A program made the position numbers and the translations under genes. Positions 1-30,589 of a stretch of DNA of 64,000 nt are shown here, piece after piece. Position 1 is the stretch's first letter, and each line of letters opens with the position of its first letter. The stretch comes from a virus, in IMG/VR virus record IMGVR_UViG_3300006339_000005, positions 32,001 through 96,000 of that record; one strand, 5' to 3'. The notes under the pieces were generated by a model. It worked only from the letters and a program-made list of their open reading frames with translations, made no database searches and was not told the DNA's origin.

Positions 1-3000
1 ATTTATCCACAAATGCCGTTCTCAGGAACGTTTCCGATTACTAGAAAAGTTAGTGATACAGAATTTAACTTCTTCTTACCAGATAGTAATATCGACCACA
101 CTTATGTTAGTGGTGGTACAGTTAAAACAGTTACAGTTACTAATGTAGGTAATTCAACAAACATTACAGCATTTGATTATAACAACACAACTGGATACAC
201 AACTGTTGACTCTACGGCTCACGGATTAGCTGTAAATGATTATGTAAGAATTCAAAGTGTAAAAGTTTCTTGTACACAAGGAGAAAAGGTTTATCCTGAT
301 GCTCATTCAAGTTCAGCAATCTTTGTAGTTTACGATGTTCTTGGTCCTAATAGATTTGTTTATGCTATGGATAAGAGTACATTTGTTCACACTTATGTTA
401 GTGGTGGTATTGTACAAAAAATTACATACACAGCAACAGATTCTAAACCTATAAGTGCTTTTAGGTATGAACCAAAAGGACTTGTAAATGAGTACGGAAC
501 AAAACGTCCAAATTCAGGAGCATTTTTATCCTTAGATCCAAGTTGGGGACCAAATGATAACGAAGCGTTCATTCACTTAAAATCTCCTTACATTCAAAAC
601 GTTACTACAATAGGTGAAAAATGTGTTGGTTGTAAGATTGATGGTGACTTACACGCAGGCGGACTTGACTCTTTTGTTTGTAATGACTTTACGCAAATTG
701 TTGACGAAGGTATTTCTATATGGTGTACTAATTTAGGTAGAGTAGAACTTGTTTCGGTCTTTACATACTATGGACACATTGGATACTTTGCAGAAAACGG
801 TGGAAAAATTCGTGCTACAAACGGAAACAACTCCTATGGAGACTTTGGTTCAGTAGCAGAAGGTATTGACTTAACAGAAGAGGCAATTATAGCATACGTT
901 GACAATAGATCATATCAAGCAGTTATTGGTAATGTTATCGTTAACAACAATAGTATTATTGCAATTGAATACACTAATTGTGGACGAGATTATGTTTCAG
1001 CAAATACAAGTTATACATTTACAGGAGATGGTTACGGTATAACAGGAGCAACTGCGGTAACTGTTACTGGCGGTGTTTCACAAGTTAGACTACTTGGTAC
1101 TTCAAGTACATTTGGTGGTGCAGATTATATTACAGCTACTAATACAATTCAAGCTGGAACTGATACACAAATTACATTATCAAATACAGATACTGCTATA
1201 AGTTCAGCATACTTAGGAATGGCGATTGTACTTACAAGTGGTAAAGGTGCAGGACAAATTGCATACATTGATACATATGACGCGGCTACAAAAGTTGCTA
1301 CAGTTCTAAAACCAAACGACGATACTGCTGGTTGGAATCATATGACTGGTGCAACGATTGAAACATTATTAGATAATACAACAACATATAGTATTGAACC
1401 AAGAGTAACAATTACTGCTCCTAGCGGTGACGGATCAACAGCTACAGGTACTGCAAAAGGTAGAGCAAAAGTTGTAGATGGAAAAATAATTGAAGTTAGA
1501 CTTTATGATCCAGGTGCAAGTTATATTACTAAACCTACAGTAACATTTACTGATCCTAACAATACAGCAGAAGCATTATACGAAGTTTATCTTGGTGATG
1601 GTGCATTAACACAACCTACATTTACTGATCCAGGGACAGGATGGACAAGTGTAAGTGCTACTGTACTTGACGTAGGAGTAACTAAAAATATTACAGGTGT
1701 AACATATACAGCTAACCCATTTGCAGTATCATTACTTGAAGGAAATAAAGAATATATTAAAGACGAAGTTACTGCTTGGATTGATAATCAAATTGCAGGC
1801 GGTACTAATCCAAGTCTATGGCTTAACTTTGTACATGATAAAGTTAAATGTGAAAGAGATATTGGATTCTTAATTGATGCATTCGTTCACGATTTAAAAT
1901 ACGGAAGTAACAGAGATACAGTTACAGCCGCTCGAAGATATTGGATTGGATCTACCTTTGTTGGTGGTGAAACAACTCAAATAATTGCGGCATATGAACA
2001 AATGAGAATTATTATTTTAGATTATATCTTAGATAATACTTTATATGCTTCGTTACAAACTGTAACAACACAAATTACATATGGTAACAACGGTGAAGCA
2101 GGAGCTCAAACTAGATGTGCTGAATTAATTTCTATTATTACACACGTTGTTGCACACGGACTAGCAGTAATACCAGAAAGTGGCGGCGAAGGTTATGTAG
2201 ATATTACTGTTACAGGACATAATATTTTAAGTCAAACAAAAGTTAAAGTTGATGGTATTGTAGGAACACATCAATTAAATAACAATACTTTCTATGTTAA
2301 TGTTGTTGACGTTGATACTTTAAGATTATATATTGACGAAAACTTATTACATCCAGCAGTCGGAGATAACTTCACTACATATATTTCAGATGGTACAATT
2401 GTTCACGGTGCTGGTTATAGAGATGAAAAACAAAACGGAAAATATTTACAAGTTGAATCAATGTTAGCAATTCCTCAATCAGGAGCAAACATTGAATTTG
2501 CTACTGTACCAAATACGTGGTTTAAACTAGTTTCGGTTACAAACTTAACAGGAAGTAACCCTTATTCTGCACTATTACAATTGAGTCCAGATTTAACTAT
2601 TCCACAAGCACCACTACATGGTGAAAAGGTAACAATTAGAATTAGATACAGTCAAGTTCGACTAACAGGACACGACTTCTTACACGTTGGTACTGGTAAC
2701 TTTGTTAGCACAAACTATCCAGGACAACCTGCTGTATTAACAGATCAACTTGACGAAGCTGTTGATAGTGGTGGCGGGCGTGTATTCCTAACATCAACGG
2801 ATCAATCTGGTAACTTTAGAGTTGGTGATTTATTTACGGTTGAACAAGCTACAGGTATAGCAACCCTAAATGCAGATGCATTTAGTATTTCAGGATTACA
2901 AGAATTACAATTAGGTAGTGTTGAACTTGGTACTGCTGGTGCTACTATTAATGAGTTTAGTACAGATGGCACATTTACAGCAAATAGTGATCAAATTGTT

Positions 3001-3216: not shown

Positions 3217-3228
3217 AGGAGAGAATAA

Positions 3229-3549
3229 ATGGCCACAGGACGATTAGGAATAGCAGATTTGGCGGCAGGCGCAAATACGTCTCTTTATACCGTTCCGGCT
3301 AACACTTTTTCAATTGTTAGTTTAAATATGGTAAACAGAGGATATTCTGCTTTAGCCGTTAGAGTTGCAGTTTGTAGTACAGCTACACCAACTGATGCTG
3401 AATGGATAGAGTATGATGTTGAGCTTCTGTCAAAAGGAGTGCTAGAAAGAACAGGTATTGCATTGGCGGCAGGGCAAATACTTGTAGTATATGCGAGTGC
3501 CGTAAGTGTAAGTGCAGTTTGTTTCGGAATTGAAACTTCGACTGCATAA
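3229..3549 (+). CDS. Small virion structural protein (106 aa)
   Basis: SD AAGGAG upstream; beta-rich small protein in the tail-fibre operon. Confidence 0.6.
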   Translation: MATGRLGIADLAAGANTSLYTVPANTFSIVSLNMVNRGYSALAVRVAVCSTATPTDAEWIEYDVELLSKGVLERTGIALAAGQILVVYASAVSVSAVCFGIETSTA

Positions 3550-13885: not shown

Positions 13886-16800
13886 ATGGCAAAAACAAAA
13901 GTAGAACAGTATATATTTCAACCAGGTATTCCGGTTAATGAAAATCGCTATGGTATGGCGCATGATTTAATTAAGAATAACGTTGAATTTATCTGCGACG
14001 AAGTAACGGCTTGGATTGCTGAACAAGTTAAGATGGAGCCTGTCTATCCAGATGCTGTCACATCCATTACAGCAAATAAAGAATTTTTAAAAGATGAAGT
14101 AATGGCTTGGTTTGATATAGCCTATCCAGGAGCTCACGATCTAACTTATAGTGTAACAAATGCAATATACACACCAGCAACAGGAGTAATGGTATTAACT
14201 ATCGGCTCACACGGTTTCTTAGTTGGTAATACTATTAGAATTGCCACAGATAGCTTAACATTTACTTGTGCTTTAGATAGTCATGCAACAAATCATACAT
14301 ATCCAAGAGCAACCGGATCAGCCGCACCTGGTGGTTACGATTTTGTTTATAATAAACCAATTGCAGTTACAGAATTTTCTTCAACAACAATTACTGTAAA
14401 TATCGGTATATCAAGTGATGTATCAGCACACTCATACGTAACTTCTACTGCTGATTGTATAGCAAGTAACGAACGTCATGAAAAATGTGCTCGAGACACA
14501 GGATTTAATATTGATGCCATTACAACAGATTTATATAGTGGTGGTAACTTTGAAACTAGAAGAATAGCACAAAAATATTGGGAAGGTACTAATACAAACC
14601 TTGGTAGTGGCTCTGAACAAACGTATGCTACTTTAGTTAATGATAAATTAAAAGAAATAATTAACGGTTATATTTTATCAAATACAGCTTGGACAACTGC
14701 ACAAGACCCGGTAGTTACTACACAAAACGTTAGTAATCCAGTTGGTGAATCTAATTCGACTAATAGAGTAACAGAGTTACATAAGATTCTTAATGATGTT
14801 ACTGTAAACGGAATAGGGGCACTTCCAGAGGTAACACCTTCTTGGTCACATTATACTTACGATGGAGAATTATGCGAAAGAGATACACGTCTTAATTTAC
14901 AAGGTGATGATGGAACTGGCGGAATACTTTATGATTTAAGATATGGCGGTAACGAAAAAACACGTTATACTGCTAGTAAATATTGGATTAATGCAACACC
15001 ACAAGTTGATGGTGACAGAACCACTGAAAGATTTGCTAAAAATTATGTCCGTGATTTAATTAATAATTTTATTTTACCACAACCGACAACGGCACAAGTA
15101 TATCCTTATGCTATAGCATTACTTGAAGCAAATAAACAATATATAGCAGACGAGGCTACAGAATGGTTTGATGCAAACTATCCAGGAGTTCATACCGGTA
15201 CACGTCATGCAAAATGTATAAGAGATACAATATTTAATATTGAAGCACTTACATCAGATATCTATACTGGTAGTAATTTTCAAACTATTGAAATGGTTCA
15301 CAGATACTGGAGTGGAACTGCATCACAACTTCCAGGTGGTGAAACAGTTCTTACAACGGCAACCGCTCACGGTAGATCTGTAGATGATGTAGTTGAAATA
15401 CGAGGTCTAGTATTAGGTTGTCCTATGGGTTCTAAAACGTATCCAGTATCTGACTTTACGCAAGGACATTCAGCTAATCAATCATTTGCAGTCAGATCAC
15501 AAAACTTAACTGCTTCAACATTTGAAATTTTCCTTGGAACAAGTGCAATTGCTCAAACTTATGTTAAGGGCGGTACAGTTATTCCTCAAGCAGGATTACA
15601 ACAAGATAATAGACTAGATATTCGAAACTTCGATTATGATACAGGATCAGGGGTTGCTACAATTACAACTATGGGTGGTGCTACTATTACAGCGGAAGCA
15701 CATGGTAAAAGTAAAGGTGACTTAATTGCAGTAGATGGTGCTGTATTAAGTTGTGATATGGGTTCTAAAACATATCCAGTAAATAGTTTTTCAACAGCAC
15801 ATTCAACTGCTCAACAATTTACAGTTAGAGCAACTAATTTAACTGCAAACACGTTTGAAGTTTTCTTTGGAACAAGTGCAATTGCAACAACTTATGTTAG
15901 TGGTGGTACAATTGTTAAAGATAATAATGTTAGACAAGCAATTACAGATTTTGCTTATGACATAGGACCAAGTCATAGTGTAACGGCGGCAACATATACA
16001 CCTGCAACAGGAGAAATGCAGTTAACTATTGGAGCACACAATTTCGAAATTGGTCATTATGTTAAGATTGCTACAAATAGTTTAACTTTTACTTGTGCTT
16101 TAGATGGTCATGCAACAAATCATAGCTATCCAAGAGCAACTGGATCAGCGGCTCCAGGTGGCTACGATTATTTCTACAATAAACCAGTAGAAATTATAGG
16201 GGCAGGTGCAACAACAATTACAATGAACGTAGGTGTATCAAGTGATGTATCGGAACATACATTTGTAAGTGCTACTGCTGATTGTATATCACCAGTACCG
16301 GCGGCTAATAGTGTAACAAATGCAGTATACACACCAGCAACGGGAGTAATGGTATTAACTATTGGGGCACACGATTTACAACTTGGTAATCAAATTAGAA
16401 TTGCTACAGGGAGTCTAAAATTCACTTGTGAAATGGACAGTCATGCTACAACTACAGCATACCCAAGAGCATCAGGAAGTGCCGCACCAGGTGGATATGA
16501 TTATGCTTATAATACGGCAGTTACAATTACGGCAATAGATTCAACAACAATTACTTGTAATGTTGGTACATCAACTAATACATCAATACATACATTTGTA
16601 AGTGCTACTCCTAACTGTATAGCAAATGATATAGGATCAGCAGGTAAGTGTACTATTACTACTTCAGGCAGTCATAATTTATCAATAAATGATACTATAG
16701 ACATACGTGGTGTTATTATGGATTGTGAATTTGGAACTAAAGTATATCCAGCAATTCCTCATGCAGGAATTTTTCCGGTAACAAAAGTTACTGACACTAA

Positions 16801-19800
16801 TACATTAGATTTTTACTTACCACCTAGTGAAATTGATCATACTTATGTTAGTGGTGGAACAATAAAATCAGCAACGCTAACTAACGTTGGTAGTTCAACA
16901 ATCATTACAGCTTTTGCTTATAATAATGATCAAGCACTTATTACTATTACTTCAGGAAACCACGGACTTGTTGTAGGTGACCTTGTTAAATTAACTGGCA
17001 TTGTACTTTCTTGTTCAACTGGTACTAAAACATATCCAGATACAAGTGTATCTTCAGGTGTATATTATGTTTATGATGTACCTGATATTGATACGTTTAT
17101 TTTTGGTATGGATAGAAGTAATGTTGTACATACTTACGTTAGTGGTGGTACTTGTCAGAAAGTTACAACTGCTACAAATAGTACTGTTAATATAAGTAAT
17201 TTTGTATTTGACACACACGCAGGACATGGATTATCAGCAACTGATAATGTAATATTACGTGGTATTGTAACAGATTGTATTTACGGAACTAAAATATATC
17301 CAGCATTAGTACACGCAGGACTTTATCCTATAACCAAAACAGATACTGCTGATACATTTGAATTTTTCTTAAATCCTAGTAATATCGCTCACACTTACAC
17401 TAGTGGTGGTACAGTAAAAGACATAGATGTTACAAACGTTGGTGATGCAGTAGATATTACAAATTTTATTTACGACAATGACCTAGCAACATTTACTGTT
17501 ACTACTTCAGGAATTGATAATCCTTATAATGTGGCAGGAGCAACATACATACCTACAACAGGAGTAATGGAATTAACTATTGGAACACATGATTTAGAAG
17601 TTGGTAACAAAGTTAATATTGAAGCAACAAGTCTAACTTTTACTTGTGCCTTTGATAATAATGTTAGCCAACATAGCTATCCAAGAGCAACCGGATCAGC
17701 CGCACCTGGTGGTTACGATTATTTCTACAATAAACCAGTAGAAATTACGGCAATCAGTGCAGATACAATAACAATGAACATTGGTACCGGTAATATTAAA
17801 ACTTATACTCCAACAGCGGTAACATACATACCTACAACAGGAGTAATGGAATTAACTATTGGAACACATACTTTAGTAACTGGTAATTATGTTGACATTG
17901 ACGCAGGATGTTTAAATTTCACTTGTACTTTTGATAATAATGCTACTCAATCTAGCTATCCAAGAGCAACTGGGTCAGCGGCTCCAGGTGGTGCAGATTA
18001 TTTTTATGATACACCATGTAGAATTGACTCCACTTCAGCAACAACAATTACATTGAATGTTGGTGCTGGTAATGTTAAAACTTATAATGTATCAGCGGCA
18101 ACATATACACCAACAACAGGAGTGATGCAATTAACTATTGGATCACATAGTTTAGTAGCTGGTAATTATATTGATATTGCGGCAAATAGTATAGTGTTTA
18201 CTTGTGCCTTAGATGGTCACGCAACAACTACAGGATATCCAAGAGCAACAGGAAGTGCCGCACCAGGTGGTGCTGACTATGCCTACAATACACCAGTAGT
18301 AATTGCATCAGTAGGTGCAACAACTATTACAATAAATGTTGGTGTATCAAGTAATACATCAACACATACATACGTAAGTTCTACTGCTAACTGTATATCA
18401 AATTCAAATTCACATACATTTACAAGTGCTACTGCTAATTGTATAAAAAATGCAGAAGCACATACATTTGTAAGTGCTACTGCTGATTGTGTATCAAAAG
18501 CAGGACACGGACTAACTGTAGGTGATAAAGTTAAATTAGCTGGTATTGGTATGTCTTGTGAATTTGGTAGTAAAATATATCCTGAAAATAATGCAGGATA
18601 TTTTGTAGTTTATGATGTGCCTGATGTTAGTACATTTATTCTTGGTACAGATAAGAGTGCCGTTGTCCATACTTGGACAGGTGGTGGTACTTGGCAAAAA
18701 ATTACATATACTGTTCTTAATCAAACCGACGTAGCTGATTTTGCCTTTGGTCCAAGTGAAAGAACTTATGCAGTTGCAGTTAACCAGAAAACAGAATCAA
18801 TAATTAAAGATTACATTTTTACTAATACTACATATCCGTCAGTACAATCAGGTAGTACACAAACTATTACTGCCAACGCCGCAGAATCAGGAGCATCTGG
18901 TAGAATAACAACATTGATGGATGCTATTAATAATGTTACTGTAAATGGATTAGACTATCTACCAACGGCGGGATATGCCTCGGTAGGATATACACCTTTA
19001 CAAACAGCAACTTCACAATATTTTAATTCATCTAGTGTTTCAGAAAGTGCCGCTAGTGCAGTTATTACAGATAGATTTGGTATTATTACTGATGTAATCG
19101 AAAACGGACTTGATAATGTTCCTGCACTTGATAGAGCACAAGTTAGTTCTATTAGATTACAAACTCGTGTACCAACAAATGACTTATTACTCATTACAGA
19201 TACAACTGTTAATGAAGTATTGTTTAACTTTACTGACTCTGAAAAAGGTGCTAGTTGTCAATTTATAACAGACGATCAGGAAAAATTAACAAAAGGTGTT
19301 GATGATGATTTTCCAAAATTCTTAGAAAGAACTGGAACAATCACAACTATTTACTTAGATGTAAATACAGATTCACCTACATACAGTCCTAATGCTCGTG
19401 TTCAATTAGAAGCAAATAAAGAATTTTTACAAAAAGAAACTGTAGCTTGGATTGGTAATAAAATCTCAACTGCTATTACATATCCTTATGCTAAAACATT
19501 AATTGATGCAAATAAAGAATGGTTAGCAGATGAAGTAATGGCTTGGTTTGACTTAACATATCCAAATGCTCACAGTACTATACAACATGAAAAATGTGAA
19601 AGAGATACAAAATTTAATATTGATGCACTTGCTTATGATATCTATCATGGTAGTAATACTCAAACTAGAGAAACTGCAAAAAAATATTGGGAAGGTACTA
19701 ATTCATTATTAGCTAATTCCGGCGGAGCATTTACTGAAACTACTAATGCTGAAATTGGTTATGCACTTGCTGTTAATAATAAATTAAGAGATTTAATTAT

Positions 19801-22800
19801 TAATAATGTATTAACAAATACTGTATATGTAACACACCAATCACCTATTATAACAGTACAAATAACAAATAACAATGATGGTGAAACAAAAACTGTATCT
19901 AGAGTAACAGACTTAATGGGAATCATTACAAGCGTTATACAAAGTGGAATTTCAGCATTACCAAATTCTATTCCAGCATGGACTGATTATACATATAATG
20001 GTCCAAAATGTGAAAGAGATGTCGGTTTCCAACTTGATGCTCTTATTCATGATATTAAGTATGGCGGTAATGCTGAAACTTATAGGAATGCTAAAAAGTA
20101 TTGGATCCAATCAACACCACAAATTGATGGTGATCGTTCACATGAAACATTTGCTAAAGATCATGTAAGATTTTTAATTAATGATTATGTATTTAAAAAT
20201 GTAACTTATCCTACATTACAAGTAGGGGCACAAGCAGTTAGTCAAGTTACAGTTTATACAGCGGCTGAAGCCGGTGTTGATGATAGAGTTAGTGACCTCT
20301 TTGCAATTATTAATAATGTTATTACAAATGGCACTAGTTCGTTGCCTGTTAAAGACGAACCTAAGATATTTTCTGACACTGACGATATTCAAATCTTTAT
20401 TGACCAAGGTGATTTAAAAGTTAGACCATATGACTTTGGTACTGATGCTATTGAACGTATGCGTGTCGCAACTGCTCAGTCAATGCTTGACGCTGACTTT
20501 GAGTATGGCCTACAGCCTACGAAGTGGCAAGCGATTGCTACACAAAGAGGTTATCCATCAATTTACGAAGTACCAGGTACTGATAAACAGGTTTCAACTG
20601 TTCAAACAGACGCTTCAACAGGAACCGGTGGAATTGGTCAATCATTAATTACTGTTACTACAATTGGTGCTCATAGTATTGAACCAGGGTCACCTATTAC
20701 ACTTAAAGCATTAGAAAATTCTGTAGCAGGGGCGGCAAGAGCTGAAGGTTCGTTTATTGTTTCAACAGTACCTACTATTAATACATTTACATATTTTGCA
20801 AAATCAAAAGTTGGTACAGCTAACGGACAAATACTTTCAACATTTTATACGCAATTACGACAAGCAGGATTTTATACAGGTTCATCAATTGGTAATCCAA
20901 CGTTTTCTATCATATCACAAGGTTCCGCAGGAGTATTATATAATCCATTAGGTTCATTAAGTGGAGCTGATAAAATAACTTGGTTAGGCGAACAACCAGA
21001 AGTTGGTGCTCCGATGTTAATTGAAGATGGTATGGCGACAGCACTTTATACATATTCAGGGGCAGACGTTTTAAGAACAGCAGGAGTTTATACTAATATT
21101 CTTGGTACAACAAGTAGCGTAGTAGGAGACGTAATTGCTCCAACAGTTAATATTACAGTTGACGGCAGTGGCGCCGCACTTGCAACTATTGTAACTGGTG
21201 GACGACGTAATGCAGTTGACGATACTATTACAGTTTTAGATTCACTATTAGGTGGTGGCGGAGCCGCAGACTTAACATTTAACATTCAAGCAGTTGTAGA
21301 TGGTGCAACTCAAATACCATCAGGTGCCCAAGTTACATCCATACTAGGTAGTGGTGGAGCCATTCAAACTATTCAAACAACGGCAGATGTTCCTATCGGT
21401 TCTAATTCAATTCCAGTTGTTAACACAGCTGGTGTTTTAGCAGGACACGGAATAGATAGAGGTGATGGTACAGCAGTATTTGTAAGTAGCGTTATTGGAA
21501 ATAATATTAACATAGATGGAAACACTACAAACACACTTGTTGGTAACGTTGTAACATATACTGGCGTAGGAGGAGTAAATTACTCATCCTTAGGATATGG
21601 TTCAACATTTGATATTAGTAGAACCGGTGGCGTTTATACTGTCGTAATAAACGAAGACGGTGATCAATATGAAACTGGCGATGTTATTATAGCTTTAGGT
21701 AATTCCTTAGGTGGTACTACTCCTGAACATGATTGTAGAATTGAAATTACTGAAGCAGATACTAGTGGAGATATAGTTACAATTCTTTCATCAGGTGCGG
21801 CATTTGACGGTAGTGCTAATTACAATGCTATAGTAGGAACAAATTCCAATGGTGTTGGTACCGGATCATTATTTGATATTTCATATACTAATAATACTTA
21901 CAGCGTTAGTTTAGCACAACCATCATATATTAATTTAACAGGAACAAACTTAGGTGGTATTGGTCTTGGTGCTAGTGTTGATATTACAATGACAAACAAT
22001 GCTTATTCAGTTGCAATTAATAATGCAGAAGATAATAGTTTAGACTATGTTGTTAGCGATAGAATTAGAATTAACGGAACACAATTAGGTGGTACAACAC
22101 CAGTTAATGATGCTGAAGTTGTAGTTACATCAGTTGACGTAAGTACAGGCGAAATAACAGGAGTAAGCGTTACTGGTACAGCCGTAGATGCAGATGTAAC
22201 TTATATAAATGTAACATATACTACAGGATCAATTGGTGGTGTTACTGCAAACATTAATATTAGAAGAGTAGGTACTACTTATGAAGTTAATATTATTGGC
22301 GGTGGTTCAGGTTATACAGCTTCTGAAACATTAAACATTGTAGGTACAGAGTTGGGTGGAGCGGCACCGACTAACAATGCATCAGTAACAATTCAAACAG
22401 TTGACGGAAGTGGTTCAATTTTAACAGCCACTATTGGAGGAGTAGCCGTTAATGTACAAGAACATACAAATATTCAAAGCGGCCTTAACCAATTAGGAAC
22501 TGCCGCTCTATTAACTGTTACTGTAAATTATAATAATAGCTACAATGTTGTTATAGGAAATACTGGTGGTTTTAATTACGGTGTTGGTCAAAAAATACAA
22601 CTATTAGGAACAGTATTTGGTAATGGTGCAACTCCAGTTAATGATATTACTGTTACAATTAGTGCGGTAACCGTTACTGGAGAAATAACAAACCTTAGTC
22701 ATACTGGTACATCCGCAGATGCAACAAAAAATTATGTACTTGGTGATAGATTAGAAGTTATTGGATCATTTCTAGGCGGTCTTGATGAAACTAATGATGC

Positions 22801-25800
22801 CGGAATTAATATTACTGGTATAGGTGTAGGCGGAACAATTACTACACTTACTATTGATGGTGCGGCACCTGATGCTTCACAAACGTATGTTGATCCAGCG
22901 TATACTACAAATTCAAGTGCTGGAGCAGATGCTTCATTCACTATAACAAGACTAGACGTAGCTTATTCGGCTTTAATTGTTGTTCCAGGATCAGGTTATT
23001 TGGCCGCAGAATTCTTTGATATTGATGGTGCTTTATTAGGTGGTTCAACAGGAACAAACGATTGTCGAGTTACAGTTGCAACAGTTGGTGGATCAGGTGA
23101 AATTTTAACTGTTACAGTAAGTGGTACAGCATTAGACCAACAAACTTATTATGGAATCAGCCAAGTATTAGGCCAGGCTGTTATGAAAATTGGTGCAGGT
23201 GCTACTTGGAATGTAATATTAAGTGGTGGTGCTTTTACAGTAACTAATGCGAATCCAGGAACAGATTATAATGCATCACAAGAACTTAAAGTTCTTGGTA
23301 CACAAATGGGCGGAGTAAGTCCAACTAATGATTTAACAATTACAATTACTGGTGTTTCAGGTACAGGCGGAATTACTACTTTTAGTCATAGTGGTACAGC
23401 ACCTGGTGGAACTGCTAGTTATACTGATATTGGCGGAACAAACTTACCTAATTCAGGTACTTTAGCAACATTTGATGTTGTACGAAGCTCAGGAACATAT
23501 AATTCTATTCTTATAAATGACGACGGTGTTAACTATGTCGACGGTAATAAAATTAAAATTTTAGGAACATCTTTAGGCGGAGTTGATGTAACTAATGACC
23601 TTATTATTACTATTACTGGTGCAACAACAGATGGTAGTATAACTAGTATTACAGGAATAGGAACAGCTCTTACAGGAACAGTTGTTCAAACGTATTCATC
23701 ACTTACTATGTCTGAAGCAACAACTGTAGCTGTCGCGCCGAATAGTACAATTGCATTTGCGGCGTTGGCTACTGCTGAAATTACATTTGGTACTGCTCAC
23801 GGATTAGTTCCAGGTGATTCATTTATTATAACCATAGCTAGTGATAGTGGATCAAATAATCATACACTTTGTGAAGGACCTTTCTTTGCACAGCAAGTTC
23901 CAACAATTTATAAACTTAGATACCAATGTAGAGCACCAGGAACAATTGGTGATGTTGACGATATTGTTGGAAACATTTATCCAAGACCAGATTCGTTCTT
24001 TGTACATAGACCATATGATGGTGGTGTTATGTTAGGAACAGGTGGACCACAACACGGTGCACAGGCAATTAGACAAAGTAAAAAATATATTAGATACCAA
24101 TCAGGTAAAGGTATTATGTATACAACAGGTGCCTTATTTGCACCAAGTTACGATTTGCTTAATGTAGTAGCAAATGGACTTGAAATTGGATCATTTATTA
24201 CTGTTACTACAGATGATGTTGACCATGGACTACAAATTGGTGGACGTATTAGATTACTCGGAATTGAAACTCCAGGATTCAATGGTGACTATACCGTTGC
24301 ATCTATTACATCAGAACGTGTATTTAAAGTTGTTGCTGATTTTAAATTAGGTGCTTTAATACCAACATTAAGTGCAAGAGCTCAAGTTTCATTACTTACA
24401 TGGCACGGTGCAACTGTACGTTCAGGTGCATTTGATGATCAAAACGGTATCTTTATAGAATATGATGGTGCAAACTTTACTTGTGTACAACGTACTGGAA
24501 CACTACAATTAGCAGGTGTAGTAAGTATGGCTGTTGACAGTAACTTATGTACTGGAGTAGGAACAAGATTTAGAGATCAAATTAAAGCAGGTGATAGAAT
24601 TATTATTAAAGGAATGACTCACGTTATTTCTCAAATTACAGATGATACAAATATGTTTGTTACACCTGACTTTCGCGGTGTAACTCCAGCATCAGCTTGT
24701 AAGATATGTTTGGTTTATGATAAGAAAACTAAACAAGATGAATTTAATAGAGATAAACTTGACGGCAAAGGTAGTAGTGGATATATTGTTGATGTATCTA
24801 AGATGCAGATGATGGGAATCCAATACAGTTGGTACGGTGCAGGATTTATTGACTGGATGTTACGTGGTGATAATGGTGAGTTTGCATTCTTCCATAGAAT
24901 GAGAAACAGTAATATAAACACAGAAGCATTTATGCGTACTGGTAATATGCCAGTTAGGTATGAAATTACTAACGAAGGACCAAATGGTAAACTTGCAAAA
25001 GATATTGATGATAACCAAACATCTATTCCACTAACAGATGCAAAATATTTTCCAAGTAGTGGAACAGTATATATTGATGGTGAAATGATTGGATTTACAG
25101 GTGTTGTAGGTGATACACTTACAGGATGTACTAGAGCGGCACCAATGTCAAATTATGCATCAGGAGCCAACAGAACATATACAGCAGGTATTGCCGAGTC
25201 ACATACAGCAAAAACCGGTGTGCCACTAATTAGTAATACTATATCACCAATTATATCACACTGGGGATCAGCGTTCTTAACAGATGGCGGGTTTGATACT
25301 GATCGTGGTTACATCTTCTCATACGCATCAACTGGTAACGAAATTAGTACAACAAGAAATACAGTTTTCATGCTTAGACTAGCACCTAGTGTTTCTAACG
25401 CTATTGTTGGTGACTTAGGAGAACGTGAACTACTTAACAGAGCCCAGTTGCTACTTGAAGGTGTTGAAGTTACATCAGATACAAGTACAGGTGGTATTGT
25501 TGTTGAAGGTGTGTTGAATCCACAAAACTATCCACTTGATCCAGGTAACATTGGTTGGGGTGGATTATCAGGACTAGCGGCAGGTGGACAACCTAGCTTT
25601 GCACAGGTGGCACCAGGTGGATCTGTTACATGGAGTACAGGTGCTACACAGGTAGTTAGAAATGCAACTACAACATCACAATTATCAGCGTCAGCTGATT
25701 CATTGTATAATAGAACTTATCCTACAACATATCACTATTTCTCAACTACAGAATGGGATGGTTTAGATGATAATGTTGTTTCTGGTACAGAAATTATTGC

Positions 25801-26413
25801 AACAGGTAGTCCAAGTTCAGGCGCTTCAGACTTTCCAGCAGGAACAACAATTTACGACATTTATGAAGAAACTTGGTATAACAGGGTACGTATTAGAACT
25901 ACTAATAATAACCATAGTCCAATTACTGCTGGTGAAGCCATTACATTTGGTATTGGTGGTGATTTAACTTATACTAACTATTTGTACTTTACAAAAACAA
26001 GTTGGGAAACAACTCAAGCAGTTTCTGGTACAGAAGTAAGTGATGCAAAATTTCCGGCAGGTACTGCGGTATCAAATGTTCAAGGACCATTAGAATTTAG
26101 TGGAACAGAATACTATAAAGTAACGTTTTCACAAACGTCAATTGCAACTGTAACTGCTGGTGCCAATGTAGGGTTCTTATTTGGACAACCACCGTATGCA
26201 CAGCCAGGTGAAACTGTATTTTCGTTTATTGCAAACCCAGGTGAACTTGCAAACTTAGACTTAACAGGATTGAAAGAATTAACGAATACTACATTAGGTG
26301 GACGAGGAACTTATCCTAACGGTCCTGATGTATTAGCAATTAATGTTTATAAGACGTCGGGTGCGGCAGTTAACGCAAACCTTATTCTAAGGTGGGGCGA
26401 AGCTCAAGCCTAA
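13886..26413 (+). CDS. Giant modular virion protein (4175 aa; tail fibre/appendage)
   Basis: Uninterrupted 12.5-kb ORF; four repeat-module types; Thr/Gly/Val-rich; lies in the structural operon. Confidence 0.85.
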   Translation: MAKTKVEQYIFQPGIPVNENRYGMAHDLIKNNVEFICDEVTAWIAEQVKMEPVYPDAVTSITANKEFLKDEVMAWFDIAYPGAHDLTYSVTNAIYTPATGVMVLTIGSHGFLVGNTIRIATDSLTFTCALDSHATNHTYPRATGSAAPGGYDFVYNKPIAVTEFSSTTITVNIGISSDVSAHSYVTSTADCIASNERHEKCARDTGFNIDAITTDLYSGGNFETRRIAQKYWEGTNTNLGSGSEQTYATLVNDKLKEIINGYILSNTAWTTAQDPVVTTQNVSNPVGESNSTNRVTELHKILNDVTVNGIGALPEVTPSWSHYTYDGELCERDTRLNLQGDDGTGGILYDLRYGGNEKTRYTASKYWINATPQVDGDRTTERFAKNYVRDLINNFILPQPTTAQVYPYAIALLEANKQYIADEATEWFDANYPGVHTGTRHAKCIRDTIFNIEALTSDIYTGSNFQTIEMVHRYWSGTASQLPGGETVLTTATAHGRSVDDVVEIRGLVLGCPMGSKTYPVSDFTQGHSANQSFAVRSQNLTASTFEIFLGTSAIAQTYVKGGTVIPQAGLQQDNRLDIRNFDYDTGSGVATITTMGGATITAEAHGKSKGDLIAVDGAVLSCDMGSKTYPVNSFSTAHSTAQQFTVRATNLTANTFEVFFGTSAIATTYVSGGTIVKDNNVRQAITDFAYDIGPSHSVTAATYTPATGEMQLTIGAHNFEIGHYVKIATNSLTFTCALDGHATNHSYPRATGSAAPGGYDYFYNKPVEIIGAGATTITMNVGVSSDVSEHTFVSATADCISPVPAANSVTNAVYTPATGVMVLTIGAHDLQLGNQIRIATGSLKFTCEMDSHATTTAYPRASGSAAPGGYDYAYNTAVTITAIDSTTITCNVGTSTNTSIHTFVSATPNCIANDIGSAGKCTITTSGSHNLSINDTIDIRGVIMDCEFGTKVYPAIPHAGIFPVTKVTDTNTLDFYLPPSEIDHTYVSGGTIKSATLTNVGSSTIITAFAYNNDQALITITSGNHGLVVGDLVKLTGIVLSCSTGTKTYPDTSVSSGVYYVYDVPDIDTFIFGMDRSNVVHTYVSGGTCQKVTTATNSTVNISNFVFDTHAGHGLSATDNVILRGIVTDCIYGTKIYPALVHAGLYPITKTDTADTFEFFLNPSNIAHTYTSGGTVKDIDVTNVGDAVDITNFIYDNDLATFTVTTSGIDNPYNVAGATYIPTTGVMELTIGTHDLEVGNKVNIEATSLTFTCAFDNNVSQHSYPRATGSAAPGGYDYFYNKPVEITAISADTITMNIGTGNIKTYTPTAVTYIPTTGVMELTIGTHTLVTGNYVDIDAGCLNFTCTFDNNATQSSYPRATGSAAPGGADYFYDTPCRIDSTSATTITLNVGAGNVKTYNVSAATYTPTTGVMQLTIGSHSLVAGNYIDIAANSIVFTCALDGHATTTGYPRATGSAAPGGADYAYNTPVVIASVGATTITINVGVSSNTSTHTYVSSTANCISNSNSHTFTSATANCIKNAEAHTFVSATADCVSKAGHGLTVGDKVKLAGIGMSCEFGSKIYPENNAGYFVVYDVPDVSTFILGTDKSAVVHTWTGGGTWQKITYTVLNQTDVADFAFGPSERTYAVAVNQKTESIIKDYIFTNTTYPSVQSGSTQTITANAAESGASGRITTLMDAINNVTVNGLDYLPTAGYASVGYTPLQTATSQYFNSSSVSESAASAVITDRFGIITDVIENGLDNVPALDRAQVSSIRLQTRVPTNDLLLITDTTVNEVLFNFTDSEKGASCQFITDDQEKLTKGVDDDFPKFLERTGTITTIYLDVNTDSPTYSPNARVQLEANKEFLQKETVAWIGNKISTAITYPYAKTLIDANKEWLADEVMAWFDLTYPNAHSTIQHEKCERDTKFNIDALAYDIYHGSNTQTRETAKKYWEGTNSLLANSGGAFTETTNAEIGYALAVNNKLRDLIINNVLTNTVYVTHQSPIITVQITNNNDGETKTVSRVTDLMGIITSVIQSGISALPNSIPAWTDYTYNGPKCERDVGFQLDALIHDIKYGGNAETYRNAKKYWIQSTPQIDGDRSHETFAKDHVRFLINDYVFKNVTYPTLQVGAQAVSQVTVYTAAEAGVDDRVSDLFAIINNVITNGTSSLPVKDEPKIFSDTDDIQIFIDQGDLKVRPYDFGTDAIERMRVATAQSMLDADFEYGLQPTKWQAIATQRGYPSIYEVPGTDKQVSTVQTDASTGTGGIGQSLITVTTIGAHSIEPGSPITLKALENSVAGAARAEGSFIVSTVPTINTFTYFAKSKVGTANGQILSTFYTQLRQAGFYTGSSIGNPTFSIISQGSAGVLYNPLGSLSGADKITWLGEQPEVGAPMLIEDGMATALYTYSGADVLRTAGVYTNILGTTSSVVGDVIAPTVNITVDGSGAALATIVTGGRRNAVDDTITVLDSLLGGGGAADLTFNIQAVVDGATQIPSGAQVTSILGSGGAIQTIQTTADVPIGSNSIPVVNTAGVLAGHGIDRGDGTAVFVSSVIGNNINIDGNTTNTLVGNVVTYTGVGGVNYSSLGYGSTFDISRTGGVYTVVINEDGDQYETGDVIIALGNSLGGTTPEHDCRIEITEADTSGDIVTILSSGAAFDGSANYNAIVGTNSNGVGTGSLFDISYTNNTYSVSLAQPSYINLTGTNLGGIGLGASVDITMTNNAYSVAINNAEDNSLDYVVSDRIRINGTQLGGTTPVNDAEVVVTSVDVSTGEITGVSVTGTAVDADVTYINVTYTTGSIGGVTANINIRRVGTTYEVNIIGGGSGYTASETLNIVGTELGGAAPTNNASVTIQTVDGSGSILTATIGGVAVNVQEHTNIQSGLNQLGTAALLTVTVNYNNSYNVVIGNTGGFNYGVGQKIQLLGTVFGNGATPVNDITVTISAVTVTGEITNLSHTGTSADATKNYVLGDRLEVIGSFLGGLDETNDAGINITGIGVGGTITTLTIDGAAPDASQTYVDPAYTTNSSAGADASFTITRLDVAYSALIVVPGSGYLAAEFFDIDGALLGGSTGTNDCRVTVATVGGSGEILTVTVSGTALDQQTYYGISQVLGQAVMKIGAGATWNVILSGGAFTVTNANPGTDYNASQELKVLGTQMGGVSPTNDLTITITGVSGTGGITTFSHSGTAPGGTASYTDIGGTNLPNSGTLATFDVVRSSGTYNSILINDDGVNYVDGNKIKILGTSLGGVDVTNDLIITITGATTDGSITSITGIGTALTGTVVQTYSSLTMSEATTVAVAPNSTIAFAALATAEITFGTAHGLVPGDSFIITIASDSGSNNHTLCEGPFFAQQVPTIYKLRYQCRAPGTIGDVDDIVGNIYPRPDSFFVHRPYDGGVMLGTGGPQHGAQAIRQSKKYIRYQSGKGIMYTTGALFAPSYDLLNVVANGLEIGSFITVTTDDVDHGLQIGGRIRLLGIETPGFNGDYTVASITSERVFKVVADFKLGALIPTLSARAQVSLLTWHGATVRSGAFDDQNGIFIEYDGANFTCVQRTGTLQLAGVVSMAVDSNLCTGVGTRFRDQIKAGDRIIIKGMTHVISQITDDTNMFVTPDFRGVTPASACKICLVYDKKTKQDEFNRDKLDGKGSSGYIVDVSKMQMMGIQYSWYGAGFIDWMLRGDNGEFAFFHRMRNSNINTEAFMRTGNMPVRYEITNEGPNGKLAKDIDDNQTSIPLTDAKYFPSSGTVYIDGEMIGFTGVVGDTLTGCTRAAPMSNYASGANRTYTAGIAESHTAKTGVPLISNTISPIISHWGSAFLTDGGFDTDRGYIFSYASTGNEISTTRNTVFMLRLAPSVSNAIVGDLGERELLNRAQLLLEGVEVTSDTSTGGIVVEGVLNPQNYPLDPGNIGWGGLSGLAAGGQPSFAQVAPGGSVTWSTGATQVVRNATTTSQLSASADSLYNRTYPTTYHYFSTTEWDGLDDNVVSGTEIIATGSPSSGASDFPAGTTIYDIYEETWYNRVRIRTTNNNHSPITAGEAITFGIGGDLTYTNYLYFTKTSWETTQAVSGTEVSDAKFPAGTAVSNVQGPLEFSGTEYYKVTFSQTSIATVTAGANVGFLFGQPPYAQPGETVFSFIANPGELANLDLTGLKELTNTTLGGRGTYPNGPDVLAINVYKTSGAAVNANLILRWGEAQA
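14141..18496 (+). repeat. Six copies of repeat module A (Y.P.TG.M.LTIG.H...FTC..D......YPRATGSAAPGG.D..Y...HTF.SAT..C)
   Basis: Copies start near 14141, 15970, 16305, 17525, 17810 and 18080. Exact 43-nt match 14300-14342 = 17678-17720; exact 49-nt match 17542-17590 = 17821-17869. Confidence 0.9.
21050..23680 (+). repeat. About 8-9 copies of Gly/Thr repeat module D (G.GY...D.I.I.G..LGG.TP.ND..I.V....G.I)
   Basis: LGGTTPEHD, LGGTTPVND, LGGAAPTNN, FGNGATPVND, LGGLDETND, LGGSTGTND, MGGVSPTND, LGGVDVTND. Confidence 0.85.
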
Positions 26414-27000
26414 AAGTTAAAAGCAATTGTTGAACGTATTACACCTTCTTGGCTAGGTAATACTGTATGCTTTAAGTATGAAGGAAACATTAACATTCTT
26501 CCTTTAATAGGTTGGTATACACTTCCTTGCCAAGACCATATAGCATTAATATCATAATCTTGTGAATATTCAGTAAATGGATTAGGAGTTTTAAACATTA
26601 AACCTCCGGCGTGTTCGTTTGCTCTAACCCAGTATATTCCAGAAATACGTCCTATACCATGTTCATGTTCATTGTGATGATCGTTTTCAATATAATCTTG
26701 CACCCAATATTCGAATTCATTTAAATTATTTTTTATTTGTCTATTAATTGCTTTGTAATTACAACCTTCTTGATATAGGTCTTTACAGTCACGTATCTCA
26801 CGCCATAACTCAGGAAGCTCTTTTGGTAAGTCTGCTATTATTTTTTCAGGTTCAAAATAATCTGTAGAGTGCGGAGCAGGGCCTTCACGAGAAGGCATCT
26901 TATCTAAATTTTTAACTACAACTTCTTCTACTTTATCAGCTACATCAGGTTGTACATCATGAATTAATAATCCTACAGGAAACAACGGTTCTATATGCAT
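26410..27000 (-). CDS. 2OG-Fe(II) oxygenase family protein
   Basis: HHNEHEH...ISGIYWV...G.L.F..P...P..G.MLMFPSYLKHTV...RSTIAFNF. Confidence 0.8.
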   Translation of the reverse strand: MHIEPLFPVGLLIHDVQPDVADKVEEVVVKNLDKMPSREGPAPHSTDYFEPEKIIADLPKELPELWREIRDCKDLYQEGCNYKAINRQIKNNLNEFEYWVQDYIENDHHNEHEHGIGRISGIYWVRANEHAGGLMFKTPNPFTEYSQDYDINAIWSWQGSVYQPIKGRMLMFPSYLKHTVLPSQEGVIRSTIAFNF

Positions 27001-27431
27001 TAAATAACCTTTGCAGTAGTTTGTGAAGTTGCATCACTAATTGTCGGGTTAACACCAGTATCTTTATCCATGACTTGACTATCTCCAGGTATAACACGAT
27101 AATTATCTTCAACTGAATCAGCTGTACTAACTTCAGTTATACTACCTGGTTCTATGCATACTAATTGATGAGGTTGTAAAGGTGGATTATGCCAAGTGCT
27201 TCCTGCTACTAAATCTTTTTGCAAAAGCTGGGCAGTTGTAGTATCAATCCAAAGTAATTTAAATTGACCATCATTAACAAACCATGTTTCATCTTTTTCT
27301 TTATGAAAATGCATAGAAAATTTTGCTTCACGCTTTTCAAAAACTAAAATTTTGCCACAATACTTTTCAGTAGAAGCCCAGATTAATTCATAACCCCAAC
27401 CCTTTTCTACTTTACCTTTCAATTGCGTCAT
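27000..27431 (-). CDS. Cupin protein (sugar isomerase-like)
   Basis: VEKGWGYE, FSMHFHKEKDETW, PHQL, EVST.D...DNYR. Confidence 0.8.
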   Translation of the reverse strand: MTQLKGKVEKGWGYELIWASTEKYCGKILVFEKREAKFSMHFHKEKDETWFVNDGQFKLLWIDTTTAQLLQKDLVAGSTWHNPPLQPHQLVCIEPGSITEVSTADSVEDNYRVIPGDSQVMDKDTGVNPTISDATSQTTAKVI

Positions 27432-28240
27432 AATATAAAATGCTCCACTGGTCTAAATTTATGTTCACCTATAGTATTACTTAACTTTTCTATGTTTGCT
27501 TTAGTATAATATTGGTATTGAAGTCTTAACTCATCTGGTACTGGAATCTCTATAACTTCAGCACTATATTTTTTAGCCATTAAATCTGCTATATGTCTAA
27601 ATGATGTTGCTTTTCCTGTACCAATATTCCAAATATCTGTTGAATCAACTGTTAAAAACTTTACCAAAATATCACATACATCGCCAACATGAATAAAATC
27701 TCTATAAATGTCTTGACTACCTTCAAATACTTTTATCTTTCCAGTCTCAATTGCTTGTTTTTTAAACTTATGAAAGACACTCATTTGGTCACCTTTATGA
27801 TCTTCTCCTGGTCCATATACATTAAAAAATCTAAAACCTTGAACATTAATTTGGTATTCAGTTACTGACTTAACAAATCTATCAAATAAGTACTTGCTCC
27901 AAGCATATGGCGACTGTGGTGCTACAGGTGAGTTTTCTTTAAACTCTTTACCGTTTCCGTACACGCTGGCACTTGAAGCATACATAAATGTTACACCAGA
28001 CATATCACATAATTCTAACATTTTAATACTAAACTCATAATTTTGTTTTAAAACTTTATCAATATCTGTTTCTGTTGTGTCACTAATTGCTCCTAAATGA
28101 ATTACTCTATCATATTCTTTTGGATCTGGAAAACGATTTTCACGATAATCATATCCTTCTATTGTATGCCCTTTATAGTCAAGATAAGAAGCTAAATTTT
28201 TACCTATAAACCCATTTGGACCTGTAATTAAAATTCTCAT
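27428..28240 (-). CDS. hldD: ADP-L-glycero-D-manno-heptose 6-epimerase (start revised to MRILITG)
   Basis: ILITGPNGFIGKNL, HLGAISDTTE, YASSASVYG, YAWSK, RFFNVYGP.EDHKG.Q.S, RDFIHVGD, YQYYTKAN; the ATG at 28240 overlaps the upstream TGA. Confidence 0.85.
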   Translation of the reverse strand: MRILITGPNGFIGKNLASYLDYKGHTIEGYDYRENRFPDPKEYDRVIHLGAISDTTETDIDKVLKQNYEFSIKMLELCDMSGVTFMYASSASVYGNGKEFKENSPVAPQSPYAWSKYLFDRFVKSVTEYQINVQGFRFFNVYGPGEDHKGDQMSVFHKFKKQAIETGKIKVFEGSQDIYRDFIHVGDVCDILVKFLTVDSTDIWNIGTGKATSFRHIADLMAKKYSAEVIEIPVPDELRLQYQYYTKANIEKLSNTIGEHKFRPVEHFIL

Positions 28241-28881
28241 ATATTGTTCGGTTCTATTTTTATCCAAGACATACTGCCTTGTCCTGTATTATTTTTATCT
28301 TGTCTTCTTATAGTTGTCAAAGAAAAATTATGCCCTTCAATAAACTTTTTATGCATTAATAAAAAGTTAGGTATATTATTTTCATTTAACTTATTAACTA
28401 AAAGTTTTGTGTAATAAAACCCTTCAAGATAATTACCTAATCCATCTATAAAAATAGACGAATAATCATTTATACTGGACAAAGCCCATGTTATTAATTT
28501 TTCAATAGTAACAACCTCTCTATCAAAATCAGAAAATACACAATCGACATTACTAATTGTTCTAAACCCTATTTCTTGGTTCAACAAAGTAAAATGATTT
28601 TGTATTTCTATTTTTTCAGCCATAGAATTAATAAACTCTGAATAAGTTTCACCAACTTGAGATACATATTCCATACCATTATCAATGGTTATACATTTAC
28701 CTACTCCATTTTCTTTCATTGCAGATGCAACGGCAAACGCAGTACAACCTAGTCCAGTGCCAAACTCTACAAAAGTGTTATAATGTTTCATTTTAGTTAA
28801 TGCATAAAAAAATAGTGAACTATCTTTAGTATTATATGCATCTCCAAAACGTTCTAAGTGAGTTAGTAATTCTAAGTTCAT
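28237..28881 (-). CDS. Class I SAM methyltransferase-like protein
   Basis: FVEFGTGLGCTAF...ITIDNG; DCVFSD. Confidence 0.6.
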   Translation of the reverse strand: MNLELLTHLERFGDAYNTKDSSLFFYALTKMKHYNTFVEFGTGLGCTAFAVASAMKENGVGKCITIDNGMEYVSQVGETYSEFINSMAEKIEIQNHFTLLNQEIGFRTISNVDCVFSDFDREVVTIEKLITWALSSINDYSSIFIDGLGNYLEGFYYTKLLVNKLNENNIPNFLLMHKKFIEGHNFSLTTIRRQDKNNTGQGSMSWIKIEPNNI

Positions 28882-30140: not shown

Positions 30141-30576
30141 TTTTTTCCATCAACGATACTAATTTAAATACTGTTTCTAATTTTGTTAAATTTGCTTTAT
30201 TTTGTAATGTATTACGTAGCCCTTGATGTAATGGTTTGGGCCAATTATTAAAACTTACCCAAGCATATCCATTATGCTCTTCATTTAATTTTGGAATAAA
30301 TTCATTTTTTACAACACAAAGATAGGTATGGAAATTAAATTTATCATCTCTACTAACAAATGTTTCTAAAGGAATAGACTTTACGAGTTCAGGAAGAGAC
30401 CCGAGTTCTTCTTTTATTTCTCTTTGTAATGCTTGAAATGGAATTTCTTCACTTTCATTAGTACCACCAACAAGACCCCAAACGTTATTTTGTTTACTTT
30501 GGACTCTATGTAAAAATAAAAATCTTTGTGTATCTAATGTGTAAAAGAGAGCACCACTACATATTATATTAGCCAT
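30133..30576 (-). CDS. NUDIX hydrolase
   Basis: WGLVGGTNESEEIPFQALQREIKEELG Nudix box; LNEEHNGYAW. Confidence 0.88.
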   Translation of the reverse strand: MANIICSGALFYTLDTQRFLFLHRVQSKQNNVWGLVGGTNESEEIPFQALQREIKEELGSLPELVKSIPLETFVSRDDKFNFHTYLCVVKNEFIPKLNEEHNGYAWVSFNNWPKPLHQGLRNTLQNKANLTKLETVFKLVSLMEKND

Positions 30577-30589
30577 ACTAATAATTATG

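Follow-up and report, generated by a model that had tools for sequence, protein, structure and literature searches.

The giant gene and its modules

The window analysed here is a stretch of 64,000 nucleotides (nt), positions 32,001 to 96,000 of the IMG/VR record IMGVR_UViG_3300006339_000005, which represents 126.6 kb of a linear, uncultured virus and is estimated to be 33% complete. It contains one intact open reading frame (ORF) that runs for 12.5 kb without a stop and encodes a protein of 4175 amino acids (aa), further designated P0001. The N-terminal 2156 residues of this protein are built of modules of three types and, according to our analysis, they very probably constitute a single-chain tree of small domains, produced by recursive in-frame domain insertion.

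Modules of the A type are beta-rich, about 110 aa long, and carry the motifs YTPxTG...HxL.xG...FTC...YPRAxGS...TIT.NVG...HTFVSAT..C, while B modules, of about 95 aa, are recognised by ITxFxYD...HGL..GD...C..G.K.YP...TF...HTYVSGGT, and the helical C modules, of about 155 aa, by ANKEF...EV.AW...YP...KC.RD...D...GGN...YW. Hidden Markov models (HMMs) were built from the three, and P0001 was cut into fragments with model coordinates (Table 1). In every split module the coordinates of the fragments complement each other exactly, and the rejoined pieces yield five C modules that align end to end over their full length, as well as six A and six B modules.

An earlier note on this DNA, made from its letters, had described modules inserted into each other's loops rather than placed in tandem, and all the sequence strings and coordinates quoted in it proved to be correct. 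A1 (residues 85-196) lies between YPGAH and HEKCARD, and separates two parts of the inner module Cin1. A block of 1138 aa with six B and five A modules follows GGE of the module C3 and is itself followed by ERTYA of the same module. One C module encloses another twice, the second time at residues 1836-2156 (nt 19391-20353), which is borne out by complementary model coordinates in both pairs. Beyond what the note had listed, C3 is itself placed inside the outer module Cout1, whose last helix occurs about 1300 residues after the preceding part.

In the nest of A4, A5 and A6, two A modules without their last strand are followed by a complete one, then by two separate closing strands and by the rest of the host module B6. 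The first residues of the three closing strands are 1493, 1509 and 1525 (nt 18362, 18410 and 18458), exactly 48 nt apart and just before the HGL at which B6 resumes, as the earlier note had seen; they are nearly identical, and the module copies in general are about 60% identical to one another. The deepest chain of hosts, Cout1 > C3 > B6 > A4 > A5 > A6, agrees with the depth that had been proposed from the letters (C>C>B>A>A>A), and a side branch is formed by Cout1 > Cin1 > A1. The insertion sites recur: C modules are interrupted in the loop ahead of the C.RD helix, at the GGE|ER hairpin and in the linker that leads to the last helix, A and B modules in the hairpin of beta1 and beta2, in the loop preceding HGL and in that preceding the last strand.

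Members of the family do not conserve the second cysteine of the A module, and an obligatory long-range disulfide is therefore unlikely. At the DNA level, the pattern of three closing strands at 48-nt spacing was found in 12 stretches of IMG/VR, one of them on the contig of locus L011 and several on GVMAG-named (giant-virus) contigs, and this pattern is uninformative.

Table 1. Coordinates of the modules and module parts of P0001, with the evidence for each (positions are those of the window; structural ranges are in model numbering)
Feature	Residues	Position	Strand	Evidence
Whole ORF, giant virion structural protein P0001		13886..26413	+	PHROG; C-terminal homology
Cout1 part a, first helix of outer C	23-51	13952..14038	+	C HMM 3-30 (residues 22-49); de-nested alignment; helices 21-31 and 33-50, pLDDT 77-87
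Cin1 part a, ends YPGAH	52-84	14039..14137	+	C HMM 2-34 (residues 53-85)
A1, complete beta-barrel in loop before Cin1 C.RD helix	85-196	14138..14473	+	A HMM 2-110 (residues 87-195); absent from P0013 and P0018; structural range 85..195
Cin1 part b, starts HEKCARD	197-320	14474..14845	+	C HMM 34-154 (residues 194-316); 51..307 against phycobiliproteins, Z up to 14.7
Cout1 part b, starts YTYDGELCERD	321-403	14846..15094	+	C HMM 31-108 (residues 320-401); alignment
C3 part a, ends PGGE, in G-H linker of Cout1	404-486	15095..15343	+	C HMM 1-~82 (from residue 404); whole C3 absent from P0018
1138-aa insert in GGE/ER loop of C3, six B and five A barrels	487-1624	15344..18757	+	1139-aa block absent from P0008, P0010 and P0013
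A2 and A3, tandem in hairpin of B3	696-806, 807-917	15971..16636	+	A HMM full length; absent from P0005; hhalign, ITxFxYD = A beta1
B6 part a, beta1 and beta2, ends TVTTSG	1186-1209	17441..17512	+	Alignment; model strands 4-12 and 15-22; joined to HGL in P0005
A4 opening part, without last strand	1210-1302	17513..17791	+	A HMM 3-91; structural ranges 24-27..354-358
A5 opening part, without last strand	1303-1397	17792..18076	+	A HMM 2-90; structural ranges 118/119..337
A6, complete, with closing strand 1	1398-1506	18077..18403	+	A HMM 1-110; structural range 211..322, Z 7.9
Closing strand 2, assigned to A5	1507-1522	18404..18451	+	A HMM 92-110; model strand 325-330, pLDDT 85-88; ranges ending 337
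Closing strand 3, assigned to A4	1523-1538	18452..18499	+	A HMM 93-109; model strand 341-346, pLDDT 71-79; ranges ending 354-358
B6 part b, resumes at HGL	1539-1608	18500..18709	+	B HMM 15-109; alignment; pLDDT 52-67
Spare beta1-like strand DVADFAFGPS, end of B array	1609-1624	18710..18757	+	Alignment
C3 part b, starts ERTYA	1625-1697	18758..18976	+	C HMM 81-155 (residues 1622-1696); contiguous with part a in P0008
Cout1 part c, last helix of outer C	1698-1750	18977..19135	+	C HMM 106-155 (residues 1699-1749); contiguous with part b in P0018
Cout2 part a, first helix	1836-1862	19391..19471	+	C HMM 4-32 (residues 1835-1863)
Cin2, complete uninterrupted C	1863-2032	19472..19981	+	C HMM 2-154 (residues 1865-2028); family alignment
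Cout2 part b, starts YTYNGPKCERD	2033-2156	19982..20353	+	C HMM 32-154 (residues 2033-2156); alignment
C.RD motifs of the five C modules	201, 330, 444, 1904, 2042	14486-14497, 14873-14884, 15215-15226, 19595-19606, 20009-20020	+	Helix aligned with Cys84 helix of C-phycocyanin alpha

Natural relatives without the inserts

A search for homologues in 5.8 billion proteins gave 110 giant relatives of P0001. Relatives that are 73-89% identical to it outside insertions and deletions differ from it by clean in-frame loss of whole inserts. A1 is missing from P0013 and P0018, where YPGxH is directly joined to (E/D)RHxKC. P0008, P0010 and P0013 are shorter by exactly 1139 aa, and C3 is unbroken in them (...TQL-GNGE-SVYALAV...), while about 1300 aa including C3 are lacking in P0018, whose outer C is unbroken (...ILPQ-TTYPTTQ...QYKNAAS...). 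P0005 has neither A2 and A3 (224 aa), with B3 unbroken, nor the A4-A6 nest including all three closing strands (331 aa), with B6 unbroken (...TYTVTS-ES-HALIVG...). For A1, C3, the 1139-aa block, A2 with A3 and A4-A6, the host is continuous in relatives that do not have the insert. We also found a protein, P0003 (locus L078), which comes from another sample, is 79% identical to P0001 and carries all the modules in the same order, which shows that the nesting is not an assembly artefact; the identical protein cluster of P0001 itself has 15 member sequences.

One of these orthologues, P0008 (3034 aa, 69% identical to P0001), is an NCBI entry under a metagenome-assembled genome named 'Euryarchaeota archaeon'. 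Considering this level of identity, its contig is most likely that of a mis-binned phage.

A bracket grammar of the family

Collection of viral loci with A modules gave 77 of them, and many split the A module at about positions 26, 60 and 91 and the C module at about 32, 82 and 107, in a bracket-like order; such a grammar of split modules was seen in dozens of contigs. In 163 non-redundant proteins of the family we counted the truncated A modules standing directly before a complete A (opens) and the extra closing-strand motifs stacked after it. Where there were no opens, no extra closing strand was present in 214 of 250 cases; two opens were followed by exactly two extra strands in 7/7 cases, and three opens by exactly three in 4/5. 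Overall 235 of 281 cases were balanced, a number which was reached in none of 10,000 permutations, and the closing-strand motif occurred 1198 times in real sequences versus 79 times in shuffled ones. The C modules behave alike: of the 31 proteins in which a helix-1-only fragment was detected, 28 have equal counts of helix-1-only and helix-1-less fragments, in nested order.

Predicted structures and the pairing of strands

An AlphaFold2 (AF2) model of residues 1186-1640 (455 residues) was computed from 114 alignment rows of natural nests, tandems and single modules, the alignments of A4 and B6 being shallow. Its mean predicted local distance difference test score (pLDDT) is 79.9, with 88-97 for the A modules. 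All three closing strands are beta-strands in this model, with pLDDT of about 97, 85-88 and 71-79 for strands 1, 2 and 3.

The pairing was deduced from the residue ranges of structural alignments of AF2 models against the PDB. Single-domain PDB barrels, of about 70-87 aligned residues each, fall on three ranges of this model. The range 211..322 corresponds to A6 with strand 1; the range 118/119..337 (1krh_B, 7wuo_A, 1i8d_A, 8rbt_S, 9occ_E) covers the opening part of A5 and strand 2, with A6 skipped; and the range 24-27..354-358 (6l2u_B, 8qq5_A, 6tek_B, 1qfj_A, 2m5s) covers the opening part of A4 and strand 3. Among the alignments listed, none spans about 25..337 or 118..353, as would be expected if the pairing were crossed or adjacent. 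These three nested ranges lead us to predict with confidence that the last barrel opened is the first closed. The earlier note had named the pairing of closing strands with adjacent opening halves as the result that would speak against nesting, and in the model the distant, nested partners were found instead.

A second model, of residues 1-403, has a pLDDT of 84.4. Phycobiliproteins cover its range 51..307 over about 120-130 residues with A1 left out, and A1 has alignments of its own at 85..195. Foldseek found nothing in the PDB at E <= 0.001 for the 455-residue model. A complex prediction for Cout2 residues 2033-2156 with the helix 1830-1862 had a score of 0.02, and we do not use it as evidence either way.

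Two barrels of common origin

A and B proved to be homologous (hhalign E 2e-5 over 82 columns), and both are six-stranded beta-barrels, recognised here for the first time. In the hhalign alignment the B strand ITxFxYD takes the place of the barrel's first strand, and three placements follow from it: the pair A2 and A3 interrupts B3 in its hairpin of beta1 and beta2; the A4-A6 nest is inserted into the loop that precedes HGL in B6; and B1 lacks a first strand, a spare strand of this kind (residues 1609-1624) being found at the end of the array. B1 indeed starts at beta2 right after GGE (window 15344-15370), and the spare strand stands directly before ERTYA. It may return to B1 and thus join both ends of the 1138-aa insert at the loop of C3. 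If this is true, the B array is closed by a circularly displaced strand, which would be a novel means of turning a tandem array into an insertable unit.

Among known structures, the A module aligns with the FCCH domain of UBA1 (PF16190; 4p22_B and 2v31, Z 7.9 and 6.6, root-mean-square deviation (rmsd) 2.4-2.5, 77 aligned residues), with the inserted barrel of the phage phi92/K1F endosialidase (4hiz_A residues 256-338, Z 7.4, rmsd 2.0, 74 aligned) and with the I-domain of the P22 coat protein (2m5s, Z 5.1), each of which is itself inserted into a host domain. It also matches ferredoxin-reductase-type FAD barrels. Since all these matches have Z < 8, they define a fold class and not a family; the likeness to FCCH, the endosialidase barrel and the I-domain may amount to a common barrel arrangement, and catalytic or binding residues are not transferable. 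A relative, P0027, scores 31.8 bits against PF16190 (cut-off 29.5) via short HG..GD stretches, and P0001 has no Pfam match.

C modules and the phycobiliprotein fold

The best structural match of the C module (model of residues 1-403) is allophycocyanin (Z 14.7, rmsd 2.5, 123 aligned residues), followed by phycoerythrin (14.1) and ApcE (13.3), and the matches to these three have rmsd 2.4-3.9 and 118-157 aligned residues. All eight best matches are phycobiliproteins or ApcE, with Z 12.6-14.7; photocobilins and sensor globins reach 9-11.5, and globins about 7-9. Helical models often reach Z of about 14 through arrangement alone. A profile of 21 C modules, searched against PDB sequences, gave 27 matches and all 27 were to C-phycocyanin alpha (E 0.13-2), on the helix with Cys84. 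The C.RD motif, which is present in all five C copies, aligns there with KC(A/V/S)RD of C-phycocyanin alpha residues 69-103, and its C, R and D are 90-100% conserved in two family alignments. In the relatives P0108 and P0038 the C modules exceed the PF00502 cut-off of 22.2 (27.3 and 26.9 bits). When PF00502 was compared with single C modules, 2/21 matched (best E 0.081), Cin2 of P0001 was unmatched, and the copies in the window stay below Pfam significance. From the model and this helix, C is identified here as a globin-type fold akin to the light-harvesting phycobiliproteins, which keeps Cys-x-Arg-Asp in all five copies, a predicted kinship that is newly described.

The core-membrane linker ApcE offers a parallel, as it has a phycobiliprotein domain with a loop insertion. 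Its PB-loop is placed in the loop before the bilin-Cys helix, which is also an insert site in C. Unlike phycobiliproteins, the C modules are parts of a virion protein. One may suggest that the five C modules, all of which retain this Cys-x-Arg-Asp site, bind bilin and that the nested tree is a pigmented, possibly light-responsive virion appendage, which we consider doubtful. The 126.6-kb record, a fragment of about 33% of a genome, yielded no pebS/pcyA (ferredoxin-dependent bilin reductase), ho1 heme oxygenase, cpeT, lyase gene or psbA/psbD, and its being a fragment means that their absence from the phage is not shown by this. If bilin binding were true, the genes for bilin synthesis and cpeT of cyanophages, long unexplained, would have a structural client in the pigmented appendage. 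The kinship of C to phycobiliproteins makes directly testable the question whether some cyanophage virions carry pigment. In the literature we found no description of phycobiliprotein-like domains in phage virion proteins, nor of PF00502 in phages.

Genomic setting

Besides the giant gene, the window contains a gene for a Nol-like carbamoyltransferase and genes for a tail sheath and tube of the T4 type. P0001 matches PHROG 5838, 5342 and 701 (virion structural or tail-fibre), with E 2e-222 for PHROG 5838. Its C-terminal part of about 1150 aa is 48% identical to a Kyanoviridae 'virion structural protein' (tblastn over 86% of residues 3000-4175), and 162 of the 168 phage records matched by tblastn with these residues are cyanophages. 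A Pfam scan of the whole P0001 found no family at E <= 1, megablast of the gene against cultured phages gave no match, and neither did phmmer of the C-terminal 1176 aa against PDB sequences. The gene order is common with Synechococcus phage S-CAM1: carbamoyltransferase, ... a small tail fibre protein, virion structural protein and gp13. On account of the C-terminal homology and this order we assign P0001 as a virion appendage protein of a T4-like, cyanophage-type (Kyanoviridae-like) marine myophage.

An upstream ORF on the plus strand (window 1-3216, open at the window start, at least 1071 aa) contains two B modules and one complete C and has PHROG tail-fibre matches, and so the module set is common to at least two virion genes of this phage. 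Between the nested part of P0001 and its conserved C-terminal part, at residues of about 2560-3260 (window about 21500-23700), there is a repeat of another kind, about 88-90 aa long, with the signature ...G..LGG..P.ND..(I/V).(I/V)T...; a regular expression matched it six times, with three of the matches spaced by 88-90 aa, and it looks to be arranged in tandem and not nested. The giant gene is immediately followed by a block on the minus strand (window 26410-33201), which splits the virion gene module. At the orthologous locus L078 the same block contains genes for a 2-oxoglutarate (2OG)-Fe(II) oxygenase, a sugar epimerase/dehydratase, a methyltransferase and a PfkB/cytidylyltransferase-type (heptose-activating) protein, and it looks like a sugar-modification cassette.

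Proposed assembly and alternative explanations

We propose that the N and C termini of each cassette are adjacent, which would allow a whole cassette to be accommodated in-frame by a surface loop of another one. The innermost domain would be completed first during synthesis, and its hosts would be closed in reverse order by the three stacked strands. The product may be a compact, branched cluster of about 11 barrels and 5 helical domains, forming the N-terminal half of the appendage; it would be rigid because its domains are doubly tethered, and a branched or telescoped shape would be a consequence of the topology. Such a cluster could be displayed on a baseplate or neck appendage of a virion of the T4-like cyanophage type, with the barrels serving for surface adhesion or decoration. 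Recombination between diverged repeats may add and remove cassettes and so diversify the appendage, and P0018, P0013, P0008, P0005, P0004 and P0001 differ in just this manner.

A number of observations weigh against this reading or narrow its support. Neither of the two C-in-C pairs has a relative without the inner C, and since both pairs are present in all close relatives, this step has no natural de-nested control and leans on complementarity of the sequence fragments. The outer C was not seen alone either: the alignments listed for the model of residues 1-403 all fall on Cin1 and A1, because Cin1 filled the list. The strand pairing is taken from the end points of structural alignments which all have Z < 8, and the host B6 was modelled at low confidence (pLDDT 52-67). 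In the bracket count, a single open was followed by exactly one extra closing strand in just 10 of 19 cases, with a crude detector. On a single contig of 13 kb, P0004 (L079:4553-5359) carries a lone A opening part and, after it, three closing strands, of which two are orphan; this opening part is a chimera of the start of A4 and the end of A6, and P0004 is probably a result of in-frame recombination between the opening parts of A4 and A6, which makes it a test case supplied by nature for the pairing. Unpaired closing strands can therefore persist and the pairing is not absolutely obligatory: either strict pairing is not required, or this variant is a recent deletion. Finally, the function of P0001 and its location in the virion are deduced from homology and synteny.

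The chimeric P0004 is also what gives some ground to another explanation of the nest, a tandem or strand-swapped array in which A4 and A5 lack or borrow their last strand and the stacked strands form a sheet or linker of their own, or pair crosswise (A4 with strand 2, A5 with strand 3). Strands can evidently exist without partners, as P0004 keeps three of them with one opening part, and sequence alone cannot assign partners among strands that are nearly identical. However, all of the strands are modelled as beta-strands (pLDDT 71-97), the PDB barrels fall on 118/119..337 and 24-27..354-358 with none at crossing positions, the number of extra strands equals that of opens at two and three opens (7/7 and 4/5), and P0005 loses all the opening parts and all the closing strands together, which makes such an array quite improbable. 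P0004 could, in principle, be a collapsed assembly as well, and the repetitive character of the region at the protein level, in a fragment of an uncultured virus, would invite the thought that repeats were collapsed or misjoined in a metagenomic contig or that the gene was wrongly called. This is hardly credible for an ORF of 12.5 kb without a stop whose identical cluster has 15 sequences, which has a 79%-identical orthologue with the same module order in another sample, whose copies, at about 60% identity, are too divergent to collapse, and whose grammar recurs in dozens of contigs.

The C-in-C pairs allow a reading of their own, that the helices at residues 23-51 and 1836-1862 are accessory helices of the inner domains, like the X/Y helices of phycobiliproteins, and that what we call the rest of the outer module is a tandem C without helix 1. 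Phycoerythrin beta (5aqd_M) does align at 33..307 of the model, including the outer helix, over 157 residues, and the absence of relatives without the inner C agrees with it. On the other side, the outer helix has the motif N-K-E-F...E-V..A-W of helix 1 in every complete C and fills exactly those HMM positions which the outer rest lacks, 28 of 31 proteins of the family have the two kinds of fragment in equal number and in proper order, and the presence of C3 within Cout1 is proof that large inserts are tolerated by the outer C. We regard an accessory helix as unlikely, and recursive insertion as the better account of the C modules too.

Comparison with known nested systems

The homologues of P0001 that were matched in cultured phages are much shorter, and the matches cover the C-terminal part only. 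The Kyanoviridae protein encoded next to gp13 (SXBG_00214 of S-CAM1, 1673 aa, with a homologue in S-PM2) belongs to the same PHROG 5838, has the same gene neighbourhood and shares the 48% identity at the C terminus. The nested region of 2156 aa is an elaboration of P0001 and of related uncultured lineages. Our literature search found no description of nested domains in cyanophage fibres or phage virion proteins.

For phage biology, in-frame gain and loss of self-contained cassettes would be a cheap way of diversifying a virion appendage. The close relatives of P0001 present a natural deletion series, in which the folding of split hosts around their inserts and the evolution of such trees can be explored. 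For annotation, finders of tandem repeats and domains will mis-parse giant genes of ocean phages unless brackets are allowed.

Domain insertion is common, mostly one level deep, and deep recursion is rare. In a survey of 2.7 million classified domains the extreme case was the six-level Si3 arm of the cyanobacterial RpoC2 (PMC13114784), and a depth of six had been reported for this arm only. Si3, a part of the RNA polymerase beta' subunit composed of sandwich-barrel hybrid (HABAS) domains, likewise shows a recursive A1-B1-C-B2-A2 self-insertion in one chain, and its six levels (PMC13114784) equal the depth of P0001, which is also six modules. RpoC2 is an enzyme with other folds, whereas P0001 is assigned to a phage virion appendage, and no homology to the Si3 domains was detected. 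Unlike Si3, P0001 mixes three types of cassette (a helical globin-type host, two types of barrel, and six barrels in tandem that make up a single insert), and its nesting is polymorphic among relatives which are 73-89% identical. P0001 thus equals the deepest nesting reported, and does so with three unrelated or distantly related folds and with a six-barrel array in one loop.

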